32,000 nt of DNA from Geotalea daltonii FRC-32 (GTDB lineage: Bacteria > Desulfobacterota > Desulfuromonadia > Geobacterales > Geobacteraceae): NCBI RefSeq assembly GCF_000022265.1, contig NC_011979.1, positions 30,001 through 62,000 on the forward strand. The letters are read 5' to 3'. Below, piece after piece: positions 3,179 to 24,168 of the stretch. Made by a program: the position numbers and the translations under genes. Position 1 is the stretch's first letter. Each line of letters starts with the position of its first letter. The notes beneath the pieces are model-generated. The model ran no database searches, was not told where the DNA came from, and saw only the letters and a program-made list of their open reading frames with translations.

Positions 3179-3200
3179 GGGGAAAAATCGGTCGGCGGAC

Positions 3201-3221
3201 GGAAGACGGAAGACGGAAGAC
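3201..3221. repeat. Heptad tandem repeat, ggaagac x3
   Basis: Direct reading: ggac-ggaagac-ggaagac-ggaagac-ggcgg. Lies in the intergenic gap between two minus-strand genes. Confidence 0.9.
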
Positions 3222-3244
3222 GGCGGTCAGGCGGGAAAAGAGCT

Positions 3245-3307
3245 CCACCGACCACCGACTGCCGACCACCGACCACCGACTGCCGACCACCGACCACCGA
3301 CTGCCGA
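3245..3307. repeat. Perfect 21-bp tandem repeat x3 (ccaccgaccaccgactgccga). Each unit is made of three heptads.
   Basis: Three identical head-to-tail copies read directly. Each unit is ccaccga-ccaccga-ctgccga. The block is flanked by an imperfect inverted repeat: cggtcggcggacgg (3188-3201) and ccgactgccgaccg (3297-3310). Confidence 0.95.
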
Positions 3308-3314
3308 CCGTTTT

Positions 3315-4334
3315 TTAAAGCCGTCTATCTGCTGCTTCGGCAAAAAGCTTCAGCTGGGCCATCATCCTGGCGAACTTTTTCGGTTTCAGGGATTGGGGAC
3401 CGTCGGACGAAGCACGCTCCGGGTCAGGGTGCACTTCGATGATCAGCCCGTCTGCACCGGAGGCCACAGCGGCATAGGCCATGGGGGCCACATACTGGTA
3501 GTGGCCGGTGCCGTGGGAAGGATCGACAATAACCGGCAGATGGGTTTTTTCTTTGAGAACCGGAATAGCGGACAGGTCCAGAGTATTGCGGGTCGCCGTT
3601 TCGAAGGTGCGGATGCCTCGCTCGCAGAGGATGACCTTCTGGTTCCCTTCGCTGAGGATGTACTCGGCACTCATGAGGAACTCCTGGATGGTCATGGACA
3701 TGCCCCGTTTGAGAAGCACGGGCCTGGAGAGCTGGCCGACCTTTTTCAGCAGGGCGAAGTTCTGGGCGTTGCGGGCGCCGATCTGCAGAATATCCGAATA
3801 CTCAGCGACGAGGTCGGCAGTCTCAGGATTAACTACTTCGGTAACGATCGGCAGACCGGTCAGGTCGCGGGCCTTTGCCAGGAGTTTCAGTCCTTCCTCT
3901 TCAAGGCCCTGGAAGGAATAGGGGGACGTGCGGGGCTTGAAGGCGCCGCCGCGCAGCACGTGGGCACCGGCTTCCTTCACTGCCAAGGCTGAAGAGATGA
4001 TCTGTTCCTCGCTTTCGACGGAACAGGGGCCGGCCATGACCACTATTTCCTTGCCGCCGATACTGAGAGTATCAGTGATGGGAATGATGCTGGTTTCTTT
4101 TTTAACTTCCTTCGAGGCAAGCTTGTATGGCTGCAGGATTGGTACGACGCTTTCCACCCCGTGCATGGACTCGATAGACTGAAGCACTGTTTTCCCCCTT
4201 TCGTCGCCAACTGCGCCAATAACATCGCGGGTCGCACCATGGATGACATGGGGCTGGTATCCCAGCTCCCTGACCCGCTTCAACACTTCTTCTCTGTCCT
4301 TTTTAACTGCTCCGGATTTCATGACAATGATCAT
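3315..4334 (-). CDS. aroF: 3-deoxy-7-phosphoheptulonate (DAHP) synthase, type I-beta, with an N-terminal ferredoxin-like/ACT-type regulatory domain
   Basis: Start taken at Met36 of track ORF 3315..4439. The ATG at 4332-4334 is preceded by AGGAGAGG (revcomp of 4339-4346). The N-terminal ~65 aa ([33 protein letters not shown]...) is followed by the KDO8P/DAHP synthase barrel ([34 protein letters not shown]). This architecture is known from Thermotoga-type DAHPS. Confidence 0.85.
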
Positions 4335-4352
4335 TCTTCCTCTCCTTTTTCC

Positions 4353-4390
4353 CGAAAACAAAAAGGCCGGAGGATCGCCCCCCCGGCCTT
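4353..4390 (-). terminator. Leader terminator hairpin 2 (D:E), immediately upstream of the aroF RBS
   Basis: Minus strand: AAGGCCGGGGG (4390-4380) pairs with CCUCCGGCCUU (4373-4363), an ~11-bp GC-rich stem, followed by UUUGUUUUC. Confidence 0.6.
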
Positions 4391-4405
4391 GTAAAATGGT
4401 ACTGC

Positions 4406-4447
4406 AAATGAAAAAGCCGGGGGTCGGATTCCTGTCCACCCTCGGCT
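4406..4447 (-). terminator. Leader hairpin 1 (B:C), terminator-like
   Basis: Minus strand: AGCCGAGGGU (4447-4438) pairs with ACCCCCGGCU (4424-4415), with one mismatch and a 13-nt loop, followed by UUUUCAUUU. Confidence 0.5.
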
Positions 4448-4481
4448 TTCGGTTTTTATTAGTAAAGTTTACTGCTCTCGC

Positions 4482-4574
4482 CTAATTCGAACCTCTACCC
4501 TGGGCAGACGGCCTAAAGAAAAAGCCGCACCAAAAATAAAAGCTGAAAAAGGAAAAATAACTGGTCGTGAGCAT
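4482..4574 (-). CDS. Candidate leader peptide, 30 aa, Phe/Tyr/Trp-rich: MLTTSYFSFFSFYFWCGFFFRPSAQGRGSN
   Basis: Translated by hand from the reverse complement: atg ctc acg acc agt tat ttt tcc ttt ttc agc ttt tat ttt tgg tgc ggc ttt ttc ttt agg ccg tct gcc cag ggt aga ggt tcg aat tag. It is below the 60-aa cutoff of the track. It lies between a promoter-like site and two terminator hairpins upstream of DAHP synthase. No SD sequence is present, so it may be leaderless. Confidence 0.55.
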   Translation of the reverse strand: MLTTSYFSFFSFYFWCGFFFRPSAQGRGSN

Positions 4575-4577
4575 GGT

Positions 4578-4586
4578 TGCTATAAT
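4578..4586 (+). promoter_or_regulatory. Candidate extended -10 promoter element (TGcTATAAT) facing the 4752 gene
   Basis: Plus strand reads tgctataat at 4578-4586. The -35 is poor (taactg). It overlaps the minus-strand -10 and leader start in a back-to-back arrangement. Confidence 0.3.
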
Positions 4587-4611
4587 CGCTGAATCTTTTC
4601 CGTCATGTCAA
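4582..4611 (-). promoter_or_regulatory. Candidate sigma70 promoter for the leader/aroF transcript
   Basis: Minus strand reads TTGACA (4611-4606), an 18-nt spacer, then GATTAT (4587-4582). The leader ATG (4574) lies 7 nt after the -10, which implies a leaderless or nearly leaderless start. Confidence 0.4.
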
Positions 4612-4751
4612 GATTTTTTATTGTATAGGTGAAAAAATAGCGACACGGCGAGCTGACAGGCGCAGCTACTTATTTTTGCTGCGCCTTCAACAATTGCCAT
4701 GTTATAGTTGGACATTCTGTGGAAAGTATTCCAACCAACAAGGAGAGATTC

Positions 4752-5531
4752 ATGAAACAGCCATTGATTCTTGCCGCCGCCGTCCTGATTTCGCTTCTTC
4801 CACTTGCAGGGCAGGCAGATGAGGGGCAGAAGCCGATTCATCCTGTCATTTCATCGGCCCGTCCCGGAGCTGAAAAGCCCAAAGAGGCCGAACAGCCCAA
4901 GCAAGTTCAGGTGTCGGGAAAAGTCATGCAAACCATGAACGGCGGAGGGTACACCTATATCCTCGTGAAACAGGCTGACGGCAACAAGATCTGGCTGGCC
5001 ATTCCCCAGACCAGTGTCGAACTTGGCGCCCAGTTGACCTTCAAGCCGGGCATGGAGATGGTCAATCTGCCCAGCAAATCCTTGAATCGCACTTTTGACA
5101 GGATCATCTTCTCGGAAGGAATCGTCGATGAGGGGAAAAATGCGAAAAAGGGGACAAAAAAATCACCGGGCAGCAAGGGGGCAATCGCCGTTGCCGAAGG
5201 CAAGATAAAGGTGAAGAAGGCGACGGGTGCCAATGCTTACACAGTCGCTGAGCTTTACAAGCTGAAGGGCAAGCTGAACAAAAAGAACATTGTCGTCAGA
5301 GGGAAGGTGGTGAGGGTCTCTGCCAACATCATGGGCAAGAACTGGATCCATCTCCAGGACGGCAGTGGCGATCCGAAGAAAGGTACGCATAATCTGGTTG
5401 TCACGTCCCAGGCCATGCCGGTCATCGGGGAGGTCGTTACCGCCAAAGGCGTACTCTACGGTGACAAGGACTTCGGCGGCGGATATAAATATGTGGTAAT
5501 TGTCGAGAAAGCGGAGCTGGAAATCCAGTAA
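4752..5531 (+). CDS. Secreted protein with two OB-fold-like (BOF/tRNA_anti-like) repeats; function unknown
   Basis: Start taken at Met12 of track ORF 4719..5531. The ATG at 4752 is preceded by AGGAGA. Signal peptide: MKQPLILAAAVLISLLPLAGQA. Two related modules end in GGGYTYILVK and GGGYKYVVIVEK. The module KGKLNKKNIVVRGKVVRVSANIMGKNWIHLQDGSG resembles periplasmic OB-fold proteins. Confidence 0.6.
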   Translation: MKQPLILAAAVLISLLPLAGQADEGQKPIHPVISSARPGAEKPKEAEQPKQVQVSGKVMQTMNGGGYTYILVKQADGNKIWLAIPQTSVELGAQLTFKPGMEMVNLPSKSLNRTFDRIIFSEGIVDEGKNAKKGTKKSPGSKGAIAVAEGKIKVKKATGANAYTVAELYKLKGKLNKKNIVVRGKVVRVSANIMGKNWIHLQDGSGDPKKGTHNLVVTSQAMPVIGEVVTAKGVLYGDKDFGGGYKYVVIVEKAELEIQ

Positions 5532-5548
5532 CGGCGGTATTGTCGACC

Positions 5549-5580
5549 AAAGGCCCCCTGTGCTGCAGGGGGCCTTTTTT
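5549..5580 (+). terminator. Rho-independent terminator
   Basis: aaaggccccctg-tgc(t)g-cagggggccttt forms a ~12-bp stem, followed by a T6 run. It sits 18 nt after the stop codon at 5529-5531. Confidence 0.8.
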
Positions 5581-5674
5581 ATACAACTGCGGAAAATATA
5601 CTCATAAAGGGAGAGCCGGTTTTGCTGGAGCTTCCTTTTCTTCTCATGAGCCGAGTCAGATAAGGCCAAACTCT

Positions 5675-5703
5675 TTGACAATCAGCCCCCTTTCCGCTAC
5701 TTT
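5675..5703 (+). promoter_or_regulatory. Candidate sigma70 promoter directly abutting the yqaA-like start
   Basis: TTGACA (5675-5680), a 17-nt spacer, then TACTTT (5698-5703). The GTG start at 5710 is only 6 nt downstream. Confidence 0.35.
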
Positions 5704-5709
5704 GGCGGG

Positions 5710-6168
5710 GTGCAAGACATACTCCTCAGCCATGGTTATCCAGCCCTTTTCCTCCTTAGTTTCCTTGCCTCAACTCTGGTTCCGCTGGGTTCCGAATGGC
5801 TGCTGGCGATAATGCTCGTCAATCGACATGATCCGGTAGCTACAGTGGCAGTGGCCACTACCGGCAACCTGCTGGGTGCCTGCACCACCTATTGGCTCGG
5901 CATTTATGGGGGACCGTGGCTGATCCGCAGGGTGTTGCGGATTAATGAACAGGCAGAGGCGCGGGCAAAGGAATTCTACCGTCGCTATGGTTCCTGGTCG
6001 TTGCTTTTTTCCTGGCTGCCGGTAATCGGCGATCCCCTTTGTCTTGCAGGCGGGCTCTTAAGGATCGGCTTCGTCAGATTTTTCGGGTTGGTTTTCCTCG
6101 GCAAGTTTTGTCGATACGCTGCAGTGGCATGGCTGACGTTGCAGGGCTCAAAGATAATAACGGGTTAA
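5710..6168 (+). CDS. YqaA/DedA (SNARE-associated) family inner membrane protein
   Basis: Track ORF with a GTG start. Polytopic hydrophobic sequence with the typical LFSWLPVIGDPLCLAGG motif region. Confidence 0.7.
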   Translation: MQDILLSHGYPALFLLSFLASTLVPLGSEWLLAIMLVNRHDPVATVAVATTGNLLGACTTYWLGIYGGPWLIRRVLRINEQAEARAKEFYRRYGSWSLLFSWLPVIGDPLCLAGGLLRIGFVRFFGLVFLGKFCRYAAVAWLTLQGSKIITG

Positions 6169-6189
6169 ATGCCTGATTTTGGAGGTTAC

Positions 6190-7488
6190 ATGATAACCCG
6201 TCGCAAAAAAGTGCTGGCCAACGGCTTGCGGGTCGTGGCGGTGGAAATGCCACACCTGCATAGTGTGGAGATAGCCGTATATATCAGAGTTGGTGGACGT
6301 AATGATCCGCAGCAACAGGCAGGGCTGTCACATTTTCTCGAACACATGCTCTTTCGCGGTAATGAGGATTATCCTGCCGGCATAGATCTGGAGGTGGCCT
6401 TCGATGCCATCGGTGGTTCCGTCAATGCCGCAACCGATGAAGAGAGCACCTGCTATTTTTCACGGGTCCATCCCCGGCATGTGGAGAAGGGGTTGCAACT
6501 GTTCGCCTCCATGCTACTCCGGTCCACGTTGACGGGGCTCGATGTGGAAAAGCGTATCATCACCGAGGAAGCGCTGGAAGATATCAACGATCGCGGCGAA
6601 GAGACCAATCCCAGCAACCTGTCGAGCAAAATGATGTGGCCCGGTCATCCCTTGGGAATGCCGACCATCGGATATCTGGAAACCATCAATGCCATTACCG
6701 AACAGGACCTGCGTCGCCATCTGGCATCTTTCTATGTGCCGTCCAACAGTGTGGTGGTAGTGGCCGGGGATATCAAGGCAGATCGTATTTTTTCAGCATG
6801 TGAAGACGCTTTTGCCGACTGGAGCGGTCAGCCGCTCCCTGCCTTGTTGCGGGCCACTGGGGACCAACACCGGCCGCAGTCCCTGTTCGTCCGGGACGCG
6901 GACAGCCAGGTCAATCTACAGATCGCCTTTCGCGGCTTTGCCCGACCCGATCCACGAATCATGACCACAAGGCTGATTCGCCGGATTCTCTGCGGCGGCG
7001 GGAGCTCCAGATTGCACCTGCTTTTGCGGGAGAAATTGGGTATAGTCTACTCGGTGGATGCCTCCATATCGGCCTATGATGAAACGGGCTCTTTCGGCAT
7101 TGAACTGGCGACGGCACCGGAGAACCTGCCGCTGGCGGTACGGGAAATACTCAACCAGGTGAGAAGGCTTGCTGTGGAAGCTGTTGGGGATGAGGAATTG
7201 GCGCGAGTCAAGGATGGATACTTCTTCGATCTGGAATACAGCCGCGACTCCACCTATGAGATGCAGGTGCGCTACGGGTGGGGCGAGCTGATGGATATAG
7301 TCCGGGAACTTGAAGAGGACCATGCCGAGGCTGCCGCTATCGACGCTCACCAGCTTAAAGAGGCGGCTGCAGCACTGTTTGCCCCTTGCAACCTGAATCT
7401 GGTGGCAGTCGGTCCTTTGAAGGCAGGGCTCAAGCGTGAGGTGGAAAAGATACTGCTTGACTATGAGCAGGAATGCACACGGGAGTAG
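6190..7488 (+). CDS. M16 (pitrilysin) family zinc peptidase
   Basis: Start taken at Met8 of track ORF 6169..7488. The ATG at 6190 lies 5 nt after GGAGG. Inverted zinc motif HFLEH (HxxEH) followed by LFRG...E, and a typical two-domain length of 432 aa. Confidence 0.8.
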   Translation: MITRRKKVLANGLRVVAVEMPHLHSVEIAVYIRVGGRNDPQQQAGLSHFLEHMLFRGNEDYPAGIDLEVAFDAIGGSVNAATDEESTCYFSRVHPRHVEKGLQLFASMLLRSTLTGLDVEKRIITEEALEDINDRGEETNPSNLSSKMMWPGHPLGMPTIGYLETINAITEQDLRRHLASFYVPSNSVVVVAGDIKADRIFSACEDAFADWSGQPLPALLRATGDQHRPQSLFVRDADSQVNLQIAFRGFARPDPRIMTTRLIRRILCGGGSSRLHLLLREKLGIVYSVDASISAYDETGSFGIELATAPENLPLAVREILNQVRRLAVEAVGDEELARVKDGYFFDLEYSRDSTYEMQVRYGWGELMDIVRELEEDHAEAAAIDAHQLKEAAAALFAPCNLNLVAVGPLKAGLKREVEKILLDYEQECTRE

Positions 7489-12548: not shown

Positions 12549-13830
12549 GTATGTGGAACGAAGAATTGAAAACAGTGCTCGATTTTGCGGCCGATGGGAT
12601 ATCCACCAGAAATGATATATATCCCATGAATGTGCCATCTGCATTGACGGGCGTAAACGCAGGATTAATTTATCCCGATTCCATCAAGCGTGGTGATGAC
12701 ACAACAAGCAATTTTTCACATCCATAAAATTTCGTTGTCCTGGAATGCATTCGCGAGAGCAGTGAATCCGCGAATTCAAAGCTTCGGTTGCCGCGGCAGA
12801 AGGTAAGAAGCGGGCGATCCTGGAAAAGTATCTGAAGTAATGAAAGGTATCTCCCAAACTTGGGGAATTACCTGTACACATGAGGAAACAATGGCTGGAA
12901 AGATCGATGTGCAAGGCAAGGAAATAACCATCATTTCCCGAGAGCGGGAAGACTACATATCCTTGACCGACATCGCTCGATATCGGAATGCTGCGGAGCC
13001 GTTTGCCGTCATCAATAACTGGATGCGTGGCCGAAGTACGATTGAGCTATTGGGCCTGTGGGAAAAGCTGAGCAACCCTGATTTTAAACCTCTCGAATTC
13101 GAGAGGTTTAAAAATGAAGCCGGAAGTAATTATTTTGTGCTGTCTCCGCAACGGTGGATTGAGGCTACCAATGCCATAGGCCTAGTATCAAAATCTGGCA
13201 GATATGGTGGAACCTTCGCCCATAAAGACATTGCTTTTGAATTTGCTTCCTGGATTTCCGTAGAGTTCAAACTCTACCTCATCAAGGAATTTCAGCGTCT
13301 CAAGGAGGAAGAGGCCCGCTCCAAGACGCTGGAATGGAATCTTCAACGGACCCTTGCCAAGATTAACTATAAAATCCACACAGATGCAATCAAGGATCAC
13401 CTCATTCCCCGACGATTGACCAAAACCCAAATAACCACTATTTATGCAACAGAAGCCGACTTGCTGAATGTGGCATTGTTTGGGATGACTTCCGGCGAAT
13501 GGCGGCAGAACAACCCAAAGCAGACCGGTAATATGCGCGATTATGCTACTCTTGAGCAACTGGTTGTTCTTTCGAATCTTGAAAGTATTAACTCGGTCTT
13601 GATATATCAGGGATTGAGCCAGCAGGAACGGATACGGCAATTGAATGATGCGGCGATCACACAGATGAAGTCTCTGACAGGCAATGTCAATTTAAGGCAG
13701 TTAAAGGAATCGGATAATGGCTTATTGCCGAAGATCGTGGAATAAGAAAATCCATACCAAACATCGCAGGCAAGGCAATATGCATCCGTGAAATCGGTAT
13801 AATCTGTGGATTGATCTTAGTGGTGAACCA
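12549..13830. mobile_element. ~1.3 kb low-G+C insertion splitting cbiF from cbiG (KilA-N gene plus apparent non-coding or gene-remnant DNA). No integrase or transposase is visible.
   Basis: Spot counts of 60-nt lines give about 33-50% G+C here, against about 60-75% in the flanking cob genes. Other cob gene junctions are 0-30 nt. No terminal repeats found. Confidence 0.45.
12891..13745 (+). CDS. KilA-N (ORF6N) domain-containing DNA-binding protein
   Basis: Start taken at Met18 of track ORF 12840..13745. The ATG at 12891 is preceded by GAGGA. ITIISREREDYISLTDIARY...NNWMRGRSTIELLGLWEKLSNPDFKPLEFE...GRYGGTFAHKDIAFEFASWISVEFKLYLIKEFQRLKEEE matches the widespread KilA-N/ORF6N family as I remember it. 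Confidence 0.7.
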   Translation: MAGKIDVQGKEITIISREREDYISLTDIARYRNAAEPFAVINNWMRGRSTIELLGLWEKLSNPDFKPLEFERFKNEAGSNYFVLSPQRWIEATNAIGLVSKSGRYGGTFAHKDIAFEFASWISVEFKLYLIKEFQRLKEEEARSKTLEWNLQRTLAKINYKIHTDAIKDHLIPRRLTKTQITTIYATEADLLNVALFGMTSGEWRQNNPKQTGNMRDYATLEQLVVLSNLESINSVLIYQGLSQQERIRQLNDAAITQMKSLTGNVNLRQLKESDNGLLPKIVE

Positions 13831-14889: not shown

Positions 14890-14908
14890 TGAAGCAATGG
14901 AGGCCATT

Positions 14909-15436
14909 ATGAGACTGTCAGTGAAGACGATAGTTAGTTGCACCCTGGTTCTGGCATTTCTTGCTGCCAGCGCCCTGGCCAATGATCTTGCCTTTGAGGA
15001 AAGGGAACCTGACGGTTTCCGGGGTATCGCTTGGGGAGCACCGGTCTATGAGGTGGAAGGGCTGGAATTCAGCAAGGAAGGGACGGCAGCCCTGCGGGAG
15101 CTGTACACGCGTACCAACAAACAGGCTGCTGCACAGGTCACCGTCTATTCCCGCCCGGACGATCAGCTGAAGATCGGCGAGGCCACCGTAACCAGGATCT
15201 ACTACTATTTCTACAAGGATCTTTTCTACGGCGCCACCGCCTATTTCGCCGGCAAAGATAATTACAACAAGCTTCTGGCCGCCTGCCGGAAAAAGTTCGG
15301 CGAACCTGCCTTGATGGAGAATGACCGGGCGGAATGGAAAGGCAGCCAGGCTAGCGTTCTTCTGTTACCGACAGGGGTCCTCTCAATCGATTCGGAAGAG
15401 ATCAAGGCGCAAATGGAAGAACCGGAGGGTTTTTAG
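14909..15436 (+). CDS. Secreted hypothetical protein embedded in the cob operon
   Basis: Start taken at Met5 of track ORF 14897..15436. The ATG at 14909 lies 5 nt after GGAGG. Signal peptide: MRLSVKTIVSCTLVLAFLAASALA. No recognisable domain. Confidence 0.55.
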   Translation: MRLSVKTIVSCTLVLAFLAASALANDLAFEEREPDGFRGIAWGAPVYEVEGLEFSKEGTAALRELYTRTNKQAAAQVTVYSRPDDQLKIGEATVTRIYYYFYKDLFYGATAYFAGKDNYNKLLAACRKKFGEPALMENDRAEWKGSQASVLLLPTGVLSIDSEEIKAQMEEPEGF

Positions 15437-15442
15437 CAAGCA

Positions 15443-17785
15443 ATGGCGCAATCGGCACTATACATAGTCGGCATCGGCCCCGGCGGGCTCAACCACATGA
15501 CTTTCGAGGCCCGGGAGGCATTGGCCTCATCCGATGTGATCGTCGGTTACAAGACCTACCTGGACTTCATCACCCCACTTCTGGCAGGCAAGGAAGTGGT
15601 CTCCTCGGGCATGCTCAAGGAGGTGGAACGCTGCAACCAGGCCCTCTCCATCGCCTGTTCGGGCAAGTCGGTGGCGCTGGTTTCCAGCGGTGATGCGGGA
15701 GTCTACGGCATGGCCGGACTGGCCCTGGAGCTGGCAGAAAACCTGCCCGCACCGCCTGACATTATCATCATTCCAGGGGTTTCGGCAGTCCAGGCTGCAG
15801 CTGCAGTGCTCGGAGCGCCGCTGATGCACGATTTTGCCGTCATTTCCCTTTCCGACCTGCTCACCCCGTGGCCGGTCATCGAAAAGCGTGTTGCGGCGGC
15901 AGCTGCGGCAGATTTTGTCATCGCCCTCTACAATCCCAAGAGCAAGGGGCGGACCATGCAGATCGAAGCGGCACAGGCAATTATTGCCGCGCAGCGTGCT
16001 GCCGGCACCCCGGTGGGCATTGTGCGTAATGCCTGCCGCGAGGGTGAAGACATGGTTGTCACCACCCTTGACCAGATGCTGGATCATGACATAGATATGT
16101 TTTCCATCGTCATCATCGGCAACTCGGCCACCTTTGTCGATCAGAAAGGGCGGATGGTCACGCCGCGCGGGTATAAAACCGGTTCTAGGTTCGAAGTTCT
16201 AGGTTCGAAGTTAAAGACAGAAAACCTAGAACATAGAACCTCGAATTTAGAACCGGCCTTAAGCCGCGCCGTGATGATCTGCGGCACCGGTTCCGATGTG
16301 GGCAAATCGGTGTTGACCGCCGGCTTCTGCCGCATTCTGAAAAAAAGGGGAATAGGTGTCGCTCCCTTCAAATCCCAGAACATGGCACTCAATTCTGCGG
16401 TGACTCCCGAAGGGGGGGAGATCGGCCGGGCACAGGCGGTCCAGGCAGAAGCGTGCGGCATTGCTCCCCACGTGGACATGAATCCTGTTCTGCTCAAGCC
16501 GAACTCCGACGTGGGGAGCCAGGTCATCGTCCAGGGGAGGGTGATCGGCAACATGAAGGTGGCCGAATACAATGCCTACAAGCCGGAGGCCTTTGTCAGC
16601 GTCAAGGAGAGTTTCAGTCGCCTCAGGCAGTGCCATGATTTCATCGTCATCGAAGGAGCCGGCAGCATTGCCGAAATAAACCTGAAGCAGCACGATATTG
16701 CCAACCTGAAGGTGGCCGAAATGGCTGGTTGCCCGGTAATCCTGGTGGCGGACATCGATCGGGGGGGGGTCTTTGCCCAGATCGTCGGCACCATTGAGCT
16801 TCTCGAACCGGCCGAGCGGGCGATGGTCAAAGGTATCATCATCAATAAATTCAGGGGAGACGCTTCGCTCCTAAAGTCCGGGATAGATTTTGTGGAAGTA
16901 CGGACCGGGCTGCCGGTGCTCGGAGTCATCCCCTATTTCCAGGGTTTCCGCATTGCCGATGAGGACAGCGTCCCCCTGGAAAGCCGTGCGGCAGCCTCCC
17001 GCTCACGTCATGCGGCCGGAGACAAGCTGCAGATCGGTGTGATCAGGATGTCGCGCATGTCCAATTATACAGATTTCGACGCCCTGGAGAACGAGCCGGA
17101 CGTGGAACTCCGTTACATCGACAGCCCAAAGCAGATGAAGGGGCTGGATCTGATCATCCTTCCCGGCAGCAAATCGACCCTCACAGATCTTTACTTTCTT
17201 ATGGAGCGGGGCCTGTACAAGGCAATCCGCGAATTTGGCGGCGCCATTTTCGGTATCTGCGGCGGCTATCAAATGCTGGGGCGGCGGGTCCTGGACCCCT
17301 TCAATGTTGAATCGGACATCAAGGAGGCGGAAGGGCTGTCCCTGCTTGATGTGGAGACGGTGATGCTGATGCAGAAGGAGACCCACCAGGTGACAGGCCA
17401 TCTGCTGGCGGAGATGGATCTGGCAGATGGCGGCAGGGAGCTGACCGGCTACGAGATTCACATGGGGGAAACCACCCGTGGCGACAACGCCCTTCCCTTT
17501 GCCAGGATAAAGTGCCGCTCGGATCGGCTGGTGGACATTGAAGATGGTGCAGTATCAAGGGATGGCAGGATTCACGGCACTTACCTGCACGGCATCTTCG
17601 ACAATGCCGGGTTCAGAACCGCCTTCCTCAACGGCATCAGGCGCAGCAAAGGACTGCGCGAGCGGCACAAGGTCATCCCCATCAAGGACCCCTACGAACT
17701 GCTGGCCGATCATCTGGAGCGCCATCTGGACATGGACCGGCTGTTTGCCATCTGCGGGCTGAAATCTGCCAAAGCAGACCGTTAA
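15443..17785 (+). CDS. cbiH-cobQ: Fused cobalt-factor III/precorrin-3B C17-methyltransferase (CbiH, about aa 1-245) and cobyric acid synthase (CobQ/CbiP, about aa 274-780)
   Basis: Single uninterrupted 780-codon track ORF. The CbiH part has LYIVGIGPGG, VSSGDAGVYGMA and ends ...MVTPRGYK. The CobQ part has VMICGTGSDVGKSV, DIDRGGVFA, and a C-terminal GATase with GICGGYQMLG and YEIHMG. The linker is encoded by the palindromic element at 16179-16256. Confidence 0.8.
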   Translation: MAQSALYIVGIGPGGLNHMTFEAREALASSDVIVGYKTYLDFITPLLAGKEVVSSGMLKEVERCNQALSIACSGKSVALVSSGDAGVYGMAGLALELAENLPAPPDIIIIPGVSAVQAAAAVLGAPLMHDFAVISLSDLLTPWPVIEKRVAAAAAADFVIALYNPKSKGRTMQIEAAQAIIAAQRAAGTPVGIVRNACREGEDMVVTTLDQMLDHDIDMFSIVIIGNSATFVDQKGRMVTPRGYKTGSRFEVLGSKLKTENLEHRTSNLEPALSRAVMICGTGSDVGKSVLTAGFCRILKKRGIGVAPFKSQNMALNSAVTPEGGEIGRAQAVQAEACGIAPHVDMNPVLLKPNSDVGSQVIVQGRVIGNMKVAEYNAYKPEAFVSVKESFSRLRQCHDFIVIEGAGSIAEINLKQHDIANLKVAEMAGCPVILVADIDRGGVFAQIVGTIELLEPAERAMVKGIIINKFRGDASLLKSGIDFVEVRTGLPVLGVIPYFQGFRIADEDSVPLESRAAASRSRHAAGDKLQIGVIRMSRMSNYTDFDALENEPDVELRYIDSPKQMKGLDLIILPGSKSTLTDLYFLMERGLYKAIREFGGAIFGICGGYQMLGRRVLDPFNVESDIKEAEGLSLLDVETVMLMQKETHQVTGHLLAEMDLADGGRELTGYEIHMGETTRGDNALPFARIKCRSDRLVDIEDGAVSRDGRIHGTYLHGIFDNAGFRTAFLNGIRRSKGLRERHKVIPIKDPYELLADHLERHLDMDRLFAICGLKSAKADR
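16179..16256. repeat. 78-bp imperfect palindrome containing a 14-bp tandem direct repeat, lying inside the coding sequence
   Basis: Sequence: ccggttctaggttcgaagttctaggttcgaag / ttaaagacaga / aaacctagaacatagaacctcgaatttagaaccgg. gttctaggttcgaa occurs at 16182-16195 and again at 16196-16209. The arms are complementary with a few mismatches. Its length is exactly 26 codons. Confidence 0.85.
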
Positions 17786-23213: not shown

Positions 23214-24035
23214 ATGGATCTGGCGGAAATACTCAGCTATGGATTTTTGCAGCGTGCCCTGGTCGGGGGGTCGCTGATTGCCGTACTCTGCTCTACTTTG
23301 GGAATCTTTCTCGTCCTGCGTCGTTTTTCCCTTATCGGTGACGGGCTTGCCCATGTGACCTTCGGCAGCGTCGCCCTGGCGCTATTTCTGGGGTTCCAGT
23401 CAGTTTTGATGACCGTGGCTGCCATCCCGGTGGTGCTCCTTGCCTCCATCGGGATATTGAAGCTGACCGACAAGGCGAAAATCTACGGTGATACTGCCAT
23501 CGGCATCGTCTCCTCCCTGGGCATCGCCGTCGGTGTAATGCTGGCGAGCAAAGCTGGCGGCTTCAATGTTGATCTTTTCAGCTACCTGTTCGGCAATATC
23601 CTTTCCATCAGTATGACCGAGCTTATGCTTGCCGCAGTGTTGTTCCTGGTGGTCCTCATATCCATCTTTTTCTTTTACAACGAACTTTTTGCCACCACTT
23701 TCGATGAAGACCTGGCCAGGAGTGCCGGCATACAGACCAGCCGCATCAATATGGTCCTGGTGCTTTTGACTGCCCTGACCGTGGTGTTGGCCATGAAAGT
23801 GGTAGGAATCATGCTCATCTCCGCACTCCTCATCCTGCCCGCCGTATCCGCCCTGCAACTGGCACGCAGTTTCAAGGGGGCAATATTCTCTTCAGCCCTG
23901 ATAGGCATGGGTACGGTCATGATCAGCATCTGTCTCTCCCTTGTCCTCAATCTCCCCGCCGGTGCCACCATCGTCCTCTTCAACTTCGTCATCTTTGCTG
24001 CCTCGTTCTGCTTCAGATTGCTCCGCCGGCGCTAG
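23214..24035 (+). CDS. znuB: Metal ABC transporter permease
   Basis: Start taken at Met41 of track ORF 23094..24035 (MDLAEILSYGFLQRALVGG...). Polytopic ABC-3 type permease. The upstream 40 codons overlap znuC and look non-coding. Confidence 0.75.
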   Translation: MDLAEILSYGFLQRALVGGSLIAVLCSTLGIFLVLRRFSLIGDGLAHVTFGSVALALFLGFQSVLMTVAAIPVVLLASIGILKLTDKAKIYGDTAIGIVSSLGIAVGVMLASKAGGFNVDLFSYLFGNILSISMTELMLAAVLFLVVLISIFFFYNELFATTFDEDLARSAGIQTSRINMVLVLLTALTVVLAMKVVGIMLISALLILPAVSALQLARSFKGAIFSSALIGMGTVMISICLSLVLNLPAGATIVLFNFVIFAASFCFRLLRRR

Positions 24036-24168
24036 GAGTCTGTCGGACTTAGAATGAATCGGCTGCGAAAATGGCAAATAGGTCCACTATTCGCTCTCAA
24101 ATTTCCAAATATCCGTCCTCGATTTTCCATTCTCTCGCTTCGATCCCTAAGTTCGACAGACTCCTAGC
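24031..24168. repeat. 138-bp rod-like imperfect palindrome (MITE/REP-like or large terminator) overlapping the znuB stop codon
   Basis: Terminal arms are gctaggagtctgtcggacttag (24031-24052) and ctaagttcgacagactcctagc (24147-24168), 21/22 complementary. Interior segments also pair (gaatcg/cgatcc, gcga/tcgc, aatgg/ccatt, aaatagg/cctcgattt). The znuB TAG (24033-24035) lies inside the left arm. Confidence 0.8.

Follow-up and report, generated by a model that had tools for sequence, protein, structure and literature searches.

A palindromic array of heptanucleotide repeats translated as the tether of a CbiH-CobQ fusion protein in Geotalea daltonii, a probable copy of a module dispersed in Geobacteraceae

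In the 32,000-nt stretch of the Geotalea daltonii FRC-32 genome analyzed here (contig NC_011979.1, positions 30,001 to 62,000; hereafter the window, numbered from its first nucleotide), the CbiH and CobQ domains of a fused protein encoded in a cob operon are joined by a tether whose DNA is a 78-nt imperfect palindrome (16179-16256, + strand). Comparative sequence analysis leads us to consider it probable, at roughly 0.7, that this palindrome is a translated copy of a modular repeat dispersed in Geobacteraceae. As proposed here, the module has an A-rich flank and two arms of about four heptanucleotides each, tandem in the first and inverse in the second, with an A-rich loop between them. As the comparisons below show, what appears to be the same module usually fills short operon spacers and also stands in frame in disordered protein segments. 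The peptide would then be merely a passive, flexible tether; the arrays would be made and homogenised at the DNA level, by slippage on 7-nt units and by templated conversion or replacement from other genomic copies; and in the cob mRNA they would form a long stem-loop like that of their intergenic siblings, most likely an intra-operon RNA structure. Such a stem might block decay of the mRNA, mark a point for its processing or make translation pause between the domains; it probably serves neither as a terminator nor as a start site or G-quadruplex.

The open reading frame (ORF) that contains the palindrome (15443-17785, + strand) is open throughout, encodes 780 amino acids and matches the Pfam families TP_methylase, CbiA/AAA_26 and GATase_3. 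Its CbiH domain (precorrin-3B C17-methyltransferase, CbiH/CobJ; 15458-16177, + strand, amino acids 6-245; TIGR01466, 323.9 bits) ends in an invariant TPRGY motif, and a complete CobQ domain (cobyric acid synthase; 16268-17755, + strand, amino acids 276-771; NCBIfam NF001989, 638.7 bits) follows after an interdomain tether (16178-16267, + strand, amino acids 246-275), the core of which is the peptide TGSRFEVLGSKLKTENLEHRTSNLEPA (amino acids 246-272, about 27 residues). AlphaFold2 predicts the tether to be disordered: with an alignment of 55 homologues, amino acids 242-272 have a predicted local distance difference test score (pLDDT) below 50 and no secondary structure, and the same applies to amino acids 504-524, at the junction of the CobQ ATPase and amidotransferase parts. 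A first-pass annotation of the window, made from the sequence alone, had described a CbiH-CobQ fusion with a linker derived from a palindrome at 16179-16256, a description that proved accurate to the base when the ORF, the domains, the repeat and the fold were checked; the 78 nt are exactly 26 codons and the frame through them is open, as had been stated. The two-domain architecture is present in all of the best 120 homologues listed (681-913 amino acids, mostly 760-820), which come from Geobacter, Geotalea, Geomonas, Geomobilimonas and related metagenome-assembled genomes (MAGs) and are 64-92% identical to the window protein; the closest named genome among the matches listed is that of Geotalea sp. 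SG265, at 85% identity.

Inverted-repeat and fold analysis resolved the palindrome into four heptamers, a loop and four inverse heptamers. The left arm (16180-16211, + strand) reads GGTTCTA GGTTCGA AGTTCTA GGTTCGA AGTT, equivalent to two rounds of GTTCTAG/GTTCGAA at 16182-16209; the A-rich loop (16212-16222, + strand, including AAAGACAGAAA) is the same in L207, the closest full relative, and is A- or purine-rich in others; and the right arm (16223-16254, + strand) consists of the inverse heptamers AACCTAG AACATAG AACCTCG AATTTAG AACC. The 14-nt tandem duplication recorded at first pass (GTTCTAGGTTCGAA twice, at 16182-16209) is exact, though its composition of two 7-mers per 14-mer had been missed, and both arms are in fact period-7 arrays of four units each. 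Among periods 4-15, only 7 and 14 yield tandem arrays in the window at a strict threshold, the other site being 3183-3316, to which we return below. The inverted-repeat arms (16174-16212 and 16223-16261) are 79% complementary, lie 10 nt apart and constitute the longest local inverted repeat of the window, and the minimum-energy stem spans 16179-16256. The minimum free energy (MFE) of the segment 16170-16270 is -42.7 kcal/mol (z = -7.2), and none of 200 dinucleotide shuffles folds as well.

The class to which such a hairpin had initially been assigned, a repetitive extragenic palindromic (REP) sequence, a miniature inverted-repeat transposable element (MITE) or a terminator, does not hold for any of the three. 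An intrinsic terminator was rejected, the stem being followed by GGCCTTAAGCCGCGCC with no run of T, and scans for terminators and promoters detected nothing at the palindrome. As for a MITE, reading of the flanks, TATAAAACC on the left and GGCCTTAAG on the right, reveals no direct repeat that would indicate a target-site duplication, and these flanks merely extend the palindrome. REP sequences, together with bacterial interspersed mosaic elements and REPINs, are short dispersed palindromes of operon spacers, with known roles that include the stabilisation of upstream mRNA segments, a REPIN being an inverted doublet that forms a hairpin. REP units are themselves small palindromes, are linked to REP-associated tyrosine transposases and are extragenic by definition, whereas the window element lies within the ORF 15443-17785, is translated, and has arms of tandem direct heptamers devoid of an internal palindrome; REP and REPIN were rejected on these grounds. 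Rfam 15 has no match at the gathering score anywhere in the window, a null result that covers the cobalamin riboswitch even though the window holds most of a cob operon. Rickettsia palindromic elements (RPEs) are reportedly palindromic elements that are translated in frame, as described by Ogata et al. in 2000. They occur in unrelated metabolic genes, where they are judged to be compatible with the fold of the protein (PMC10969869). The window palindrome, in frame at a site of predicted disorder (pLDDT below 50), resembles them in behaviour only: RPEs are approximately 100-150 bp long, form families of conserved sequence, contain no tandem heptamers and belong to an unrelated taxon, and no homology is implied.

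Junction DNAs from the window and 11 relatives (L201-L211) were compared between the TPRGY motif of CbiH and the GTGSDVGKS motif of CobQ. All 12 contain, at the same place, about four tandem heptamers, an A- or purine-rich loop and about four inverse heptamers, and the motif-to-motif spacing is exactly 108 nt in half of them (6/12); the comparison of junctions that the first-pass annotation had proposed finds a hairpin of this layout in every one, and separate genes with a stop codon between them in more distant lineages. The heptamer itself changes. It is GGTTCTA/GGTTCGA in the window, L207, L208, L201 and L209, CGTTCGA in L203 (four units in an arm, with no GG tracts), GGTTCAA in L210, GGCGCGA in L204, AGTTCCG in L205, GGCAAAG in L206, GGGACCR in L211 and a degenerate GGGACCG-like unit in L202. 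Two tethers are expanded: that of L208 measures 192 nt and that of L209, with its two nested arrays, 282 nt. Among the best 120 proteins the modal tether length is 36 amino acids and the tether peptides fall into the same few types as the heptamers. When the proteins are ordered by a rough neighbor-joining procedure with the tether excluded, the heptamer types are distributed patchily; for example, in the clade of the window itself the GGGACCR-type tether of P0007/L211, a protein 76% identical to that of the window, has GTTCKA and GCGCGA types around it. The notion that the tether heptamer represents one genome-specific family was found too simple, given that genomes carry several families and that the sites of a single operon differ (L205, L210, L211). 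Slippage combined with replacement would account for such swaps of heptamers, within a small set, at a fixed site (GGTTCKA, GGCGCGA, GGGACCR, GGCAAAG, AGTTCCG) with position, orientation and the 4+4 arrangement retained.

The MFE of the junctions ranges from -34 to -128 kcal/mol, with z between -2 and -10 in all but the degenerate L202 junction, which folds no better than its shuffles (z = -0.5). Significant arm pairing is accordingly common to 11 of the 12 junctions, and it is this pairing, not G-tracts, that they have in common, a distinction that bears on whether the arrays are G-quadruplex (G4) heptamer simple sequence repeats (SSRs) of the Xanthomonas/Nostoc type, in which four G-tracts would explain the preference for four units. 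Four-unit G-rich arrays located between aligned ORFs do form G4 in vitro (PMC4692102), and the GGGACCR, GGGGACT and GGGCAAA arrays of the relatives fit the pattern G3N4 repeated four times. Each arm of the window element, however, has three GG tracts and no GGG, short of the four G-tracts by which G4 heptamer SSRs are defined, and the L203 arm has none; we give a G4 origin very little credence.

Covariation was examined by placing an eight-sequence alignment (the window and seven relatives) on the stem of the window. Eighty per cent of the cells are paired, compared with 67% in shuffles, none of 500 of which reaches the observed value, and with 23-49% in controls where the partner was slid; 16 of the 29 stem pairs have changed on both sides. 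The phase of variation was then tabulated for four GTTC-type junctions of equal length, together with 150 nt of flanking coding sequence on the CbiH side and as much on the CobQ side. In the flanks the variable columns fall mostly on codon position 3 (35/50 and 30/50, against 5-11/50 for positions 1 and 2), whereas in the arms variation is flat with respect to codon phase (left, 4/11, 5/11 and 3/10; right, 4/11, 4/10 and 6/11). Heptamer phase, by contrast, is sharp in the left arm: variation affects 5/5 and 4/4 repeats at two positions and 0/5 at two others. These patterns indicate that the constraint on the arms is at the nucleotide level, in heptamer phase and arm pairing, not in the peptide, and they bear out the initial proposal that the linker is a nucleotide repeat read through by translation, not a peptide selected as protein. 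An ordinary protein linker could be argued from the conserved tether length of about 36 amino acids and from recurring peptide motifs such as NLEPRTSNLEP, but the codon-phase signal expected of one is absent where the heptamer-phase signal is present, the segment folds with z = -7.2, and the same DNA stands between genes in relatives; a stop or frameshift masked by a sequencing artefact is countered by more than 100 independent assemblies in the homologue listing, all of which read the fusion through. Either account seems to us scarcely credible.

The reading frame may also have left a mark. The consensus heptamer of the window contains TAG, and the two heptamers in which this triplet would fall in frame lack it: the one in the left arm reads GAA (16193-16195) and the one in the right arm reads TCG (16241-16243), where L207 has CAG, a different fix. 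TAG is thus kept by none of the two in-frame heptamers and by five of the six off-frame ones of the window. Arrays of GGTTCGA, GGCGCGA, AGTTCCG and GGCAAAG are stop-free in any frame, and the heptamers of most other lineages are likewise free of stops.

Several observations weigh against the view that the palindrome is a translated copy of a dispersed module with a role in RNA. No second copy of the palindrome was found within the 32-kb window, and inverted pairing is missing from approximately two thirds of the intergenic arrays examined, which means that the hairpin is not universal in the class. One of the aligned sequences itself supplied the structure used for the covariation analysis, and the shuffle test is inflated by relatedness among the sequences; covariation could, moreover, stem from whole-cassette replacement or from hairpin-templated repair without structural selection. 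The substitutions that separate the arms of the window from those of L207 (86% protein identity) are not visibly compensatory, for which reason selection for pairing is not evident over short time scales, and the L207 stem is weaker (z = -3.3). The TAG pattern fits an ORF imposed on a stop-containing repeat, but it is descriptive and drawn from a small sample. The proposed role in RNA is the weakest step of the reading that we favor.

Catalogues of heptamer arrays exist for Geobacter, Xanthomonas, cyanobacteria and Beggiatoaceae. For such arrays the CbiH-CobQ tether offers a rare natural experiment, being one orthologous, alignable site with invariant motifs on either side at which the array must keep the reading frame. 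What is constrained (heptamer phase, arm pairing and unit number) and what is free (peptide sequence and heptamer identity) can be read from the tether sequence, as can the rate of cassette replacement, and with a fixed in-frame site the question of whether such arrays are selfish products of slippage or signals in RNA or DNA becomes testable. A warning for annotation follows as well, in that what is called a 'linker' peptide in a Geobacteraceae fusion protein may come from the translation of repeat DNA.

The nearest described elements are those of G. metallireducens, in which Aklujkar et al. (2009; PMC2700814) listed 49 'Gmet_H4##' elements with four tandem GGGACCG units, within and between genes, and hypothesized a regulatory RNA or global regulatory element; no cross-species comparison was given. 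Three of these elements, Gmet_H411-H413, are listed inside the orthologous G. metallireducens gene, with H411 and H412 in the cbiH-cobQ tether, and another, H403, is entered in Table S4 of that work as a 'linker between fused proteins' in a Ddl-FtsQ fusion (PMC2700814). The window element has in common with them the four heptamers per array, frequent inverted pairs, occurrence both between co-directional genes and in frame, and the orthologous position of H411/H412. It differs in its heptamer, which is GGTTCTA/GGTTCGA and not GGGACCG, so that it falls outside the H4 sequence family, in a sister family, and has no canonical G4 potential. Against the published consensus AAAGGCC-(GGGACCR)4-GGAAAAC (Fig. 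S2 of PMC2700814), the A-rich and GGCC flanks match in part: the right arm of the window, reverse-complemented, reads TTAAGGCC-(4 heptamers)-GGTTTTC, and the left arm has ATAAAACC and GTTAAAGAC. By these comparisons the window element belongs, in all appearance, with the Geobacteraceae '4 x heptanucleotide' arrays, and the 2009 annotation provides a precedent for the case. In the literature that could be searched, no later study of the Geobacter heptamer elements was found, and the multicopy family inserted in protein-coding genes of G. bemidjiensis (Aklujkar et al. 2010, PMC2996986) differs in sequence and belongs to another species. As far as we could find, the cross-species picture suggested here is new: a site that stays fixed as its heptamers are swapped, pairing that is kept, a constraint in heptamer phase, and in-frame stops that are avoided.

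A permissive scan of a genome collection with the pattern GTTCKAR x3 returned at least 120 loci (L001-L120). Nine among the matches listed are from Geobacterales, and nearly all of the listed Geobacterales arrays fill short spacers between co-directional genes. Two genomes carry GTTCKA arrays at a second locus in addition to the one at cobQ, namely Geotalea sp. SG265 (L034, on another scaffold, and L201) and the MAG DATDNF01 (L045 and L203). The first-pass annotation had asked whether other copies of the element are intergenic, and in related genomes copies of the same module do lie between genes. The znuC-znuB spacer of L211 is a complete GTTCTAT/GTTCTAG 4+4 hairpin that extends from the znuC stop to the znuB ribosome-binding site, with the layout TGA-AAAAAC-(GTTCTAT GTTCTAG)x2-loop-(TTAGAAC GTAGAAC)x2-ATATTTT-AAGAGGGG-ATG, and by its sequence it appears to be an intergenic sibling of the window element with the TAGs intact. 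In 162 kb of cob loci there are 18 period-7 arrays, compared with 0-6 for each other period from 4 to 12. GTTCKAR arrays occur, among the matches listed, also in Pseudoalteromonas, Shewanella, Vibrio, Halomonas, Desulfosporosinus, Acidobacteriota and others, where they reach at least 21 units and where several Desulfosporosinus genomes matched more than once.

Further in-frame arrays lie, in several relatives, within cbiD and where the ATPase and amidotransferase parts of CobQ meet (L203 816-856 and 7157-7205; L205 4770-5035; L206 856-965 and 11536-11571; L210 5170-5434 and 11579-11617; L211 2045-2082, 3843-4106 and 11542-11571) and correspond to the Gmet_H409/H410 and H413 sites; the window itself has no arrays in cbiD or at that junction. 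It does contain a second heptamer element with other heptamers (3183-3316, - strand), in the spacer after a DAHP synthase gene (3315-4439, - strand), reported by Tandem Repeats Finder with periods 7 and 21. On the mRNA strand this element consists of nine TCGGTGG/TCGGCAG units, with a perfect 21-nt super-period, adjacent to 3.7 units of TCTTCCG; its RNA folds at -75.3 kcal/mol (z = -4.7), the outer ends CGGTCGGC and GCCGACCG pair, and AUUUUU comes next, so that it looks like a repeat-filled terminator or attenuator. The host, in other words, carries the same kind of element between genes.

The dispersal of such arrays across genomes, their repeated short units and their paired inverted arrangement led the authors of the 2009 genome paper to the idea that they are DNA sites for IHF/HU-like proteins or for another global regulator or nucleoid protein, in which case their reading through in the tether would be incidental. 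The heptamer-phase constraint is equally compatible with this proposal. No cognate protein is known, though, and many specificities would be needed to accommodate heptamers that differ within one operon (L210, L211) and between close relatives, while the preference for co-directional spacers suits a role at the level of the transcript better than one at the promoter. Overall, we regard DNA sites of this sort as a quite improbable basis for the element.

Heptamer repeats are familiar outside Geobacteraceae. The four-unit G-rich heptamer SSRs of Xanthomonas and Nostoc (GGGAATC, GGGGAYT) that form G4 in vitro (Rehm et al. 2015, PMC4692102), and the heptamers of cyanobacterial short tandemly repeated repetitive (STRR) sequences, have the 7-nt unit and a strong preference for four units in common with the arrays considered here; the repeats described by Rehm et al. 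are found in transcribed DNA between aligned ORFs, at conserved positions where the arrays themselves differ from one close relative to the next (PMC4692102). They are under-represented in coding DNA and are attributed to G4 formation, whereas the window element is coding, has fewer than four G-tracts and is defined by the pairing of its arms. The TAACTGA direct repeats of marine Beggiatoaceae (MacGregor 2015, PMC4679880) represent a different heptamer in a different lineage; they are concentrated just upstream of start codons, the stop codons within the unit limit their entry into ORFs, and little secondary structure is predicted for the repeats alone. According to earlier work summarized in the same paper, heptamers are the commonest long simple repeats in most bacterial genomes surveyed, polymerase slippage being a possible cause (PMC4679880).

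Arrays of CCCCAGT, the reverse complement of GGGGACT, are present in Geobacterales as well and point to the recurrence of the same heptamers in distant phyla. They were observed at L073 6150-6165, L120 about 7300-7330, L205 4770-4810 and L211 2045-2082, and the GGGGA(C/T)T unit to which they correspond is presumably the cyanobacterial STRR1 unit. It is also the Nostoc repeat of Rehm et al. (PMC4692102).

How the array came to lie between the two domains was considered with the help of outgroup junctions, for which metagenomes were scanned by protein alignment; the scan yielded mostly stand-alone CobQ and eight informative junctions. In the distant metagenome lineages L123, L125, L126 and L131, cbiH and cobQ are separate and adjacent: the cbiH stop is followed by a short spacer, then by a Shine-Dalgarno sequence, and cobQ starts as MKYRPLM. 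The more divergent fused sequences (L121, L122, L127) have CbiH and CobQ joined by an ordinary tether free of repeats. The fusion thus appears to be old and family-wide, and to mirror adjacency in the operon, not substrate channelling; since distant lineages have neighboring cbiH stop and cobQ start codons, adjacency explains the pairing, and the earlier remark that CbiH and CobQ are not an obvious channelling pair was a fair one.

Two histories had been put forward at first pass, the loss of a stop codon flanking an intergenic hairpin and the insertion of a palindrome into an existing fusion. The first would start from an intercistronic 4+4 hairpin between cbiH and cobQ, the reading through of which, once the stop was lost, made the fusion. 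The same module does span intercistronic spacers from stop to ribosome-binding site, the distant lineages do have separate, adjacent genes, several of the heptamer arrays are stop-free in every frame as noted above, and H403 of G. metallireducens is annotated as the Ddl-FtsQ linker (PMC2700814). On the other side stand the array-less fusions L121, L122 and L127, the array-less tethers among the best 120 homologues (Geomonas sp. RF6, P0066; P0058; and the group P0085/P0104/P0114/P0116), and the arrays in the CobQ interdomain loop and in cbiD, places that were never gene boundaries and where colonisation in frame demonstrably happens. An origin of the fusion from the element is thus a tentative alternative that we hold to be rather unlikely. 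Because array-less fusions exist and arrays occupy loops that were never boundaries, the arrays probably colonised an already fused tether and did not create the fusion; of the two histories the evidence leans to insertion and away from the lost stop, and it is not decisive.

It is also conceivable, if speculative and in our estimate unlikely, that an active mechanism in Geobacteraceae, templated or driven by an enzyme, writes or copies cassettes of about four heptamers, in many cases as inverted pairs, into fixed permissive sites such as operon spacers and disordered tethers, and repeatedly overwrites one family with another, position, orientation and the 4+4 hairpin being preserved. The hairpin would then be selected as an RNA signal within coding sequence, and fusions such as Ddl-FtsQ, and possibly CbiH-CobQ, would arise on occasion.

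Downstream of the palindrome, the GTG-ATG at 16271-16276 had been suggested as a site for separate initiation of CobQ. It is indeed in frame, as V277-M278, but a separate start there is unsupported: no Shine-Dalgarno sequence lies 5' of it in the window, and its Met is an internal, conserved CobQ residue, stand-alone CobQs beginning six codons upstream (MKYRPLM). This conserved Met after the stem is not a vestigial start. The GTG-ATG also enters into a broader scenario of recoding or an expression switch, in which frameshifting or termination at an off-frame TAG, or re-initiation at the GTG-ATG, would yield separate CbiH and CobQ besides the fusion. The arms of the window hold TAG in both non-coding frames, and a run of AAAA (in TAT AAA ACC) lies just 5' of the stem; neither is conserved, however: in most relatives the heptamers carry no stops and GAG ACA replaces AAA ACC. 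For this reason the idea that ribosomes shift by +1 or -1 at TAT-AAA-ACC and end at an off-frame TAG was dropped, and recoding as a whole strikes us as very improbable.

Over the (G)xA(V/L)M codons at the start of the CobQ domain, L203 (6430-6455), L205 (10822-10846), L206 (10802-10820) and L210 (10845-10873) have another short hairpin, GC-rich and with a loop of 3 nt, for which z lies between -3.3 and -8.6. Its stems co-vary (CATCACGGC/GCCGTGATG, CACCATGAGGGC/GCCCTCATGGTG and GGGCTCT/AGAGCCC), and its 5' arm, which lies in the tether, appears tailored to pair with the constrained CobQ codons. It is absent in the clade of the window, not significant at window positions 16255-16270, and was for that reason set apart from the tether palindrome.

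L208, from a Logan assembly, is the closest relative among the matches listed (92% protein identity over the aligned part). In it (3969-6926) the CbiH part is broken into several short calls upstream of a 681-amino-acid product, which could be an assembly error or true decay of the CbiH half. Between cbiG and cbiH-cobQ the window has a 179-amino-acid ORF (14897-15436, + strand) with no Pfam or NCBIfam match; a counterpart is found at the same position in L201 (175 amino acids) and L207 (174 amino acids), and other relatives have a GxxExxY gene there.

The spacers of the cob operon are, more generally, a hotspot for small unrelated inserts. These include a KilA-N gene in the window (12840-13745, + strand) and in L208 (1952-2323), a Bro-N gene in L206 (12558-13418), two MNT/HepT toxin-antitoxin pairs in L211 (4294-4942 and 7043-7673) and further inserts in L203 (5177-5551), L204 (9589-9963), L205 (9594-9956) and L210 (624-1043); genes of the GxxExxY/PD-(D/E)XK type (TIGR04256) are present in the cob spacers of several relatives. 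A perfect 32-nt palindrome, TTTTAAACCTCTCGAATTCGAGAGGTTTAAAA, lies within the KilA-N ORF of the window (13082-13113). Another pair of inverted repeats, 22 nt long, 95% complementary and 94 nt apart (GCTAGGAGTCTGTCGGACTTAG ... CTAAGTTCGACAGACTCCTAGC; 24031-24168), is located just after an ORF that ends at 24035 and that, given synteny with relatives, is probably znuB; this palindrome is of a different, MITE-like kind.

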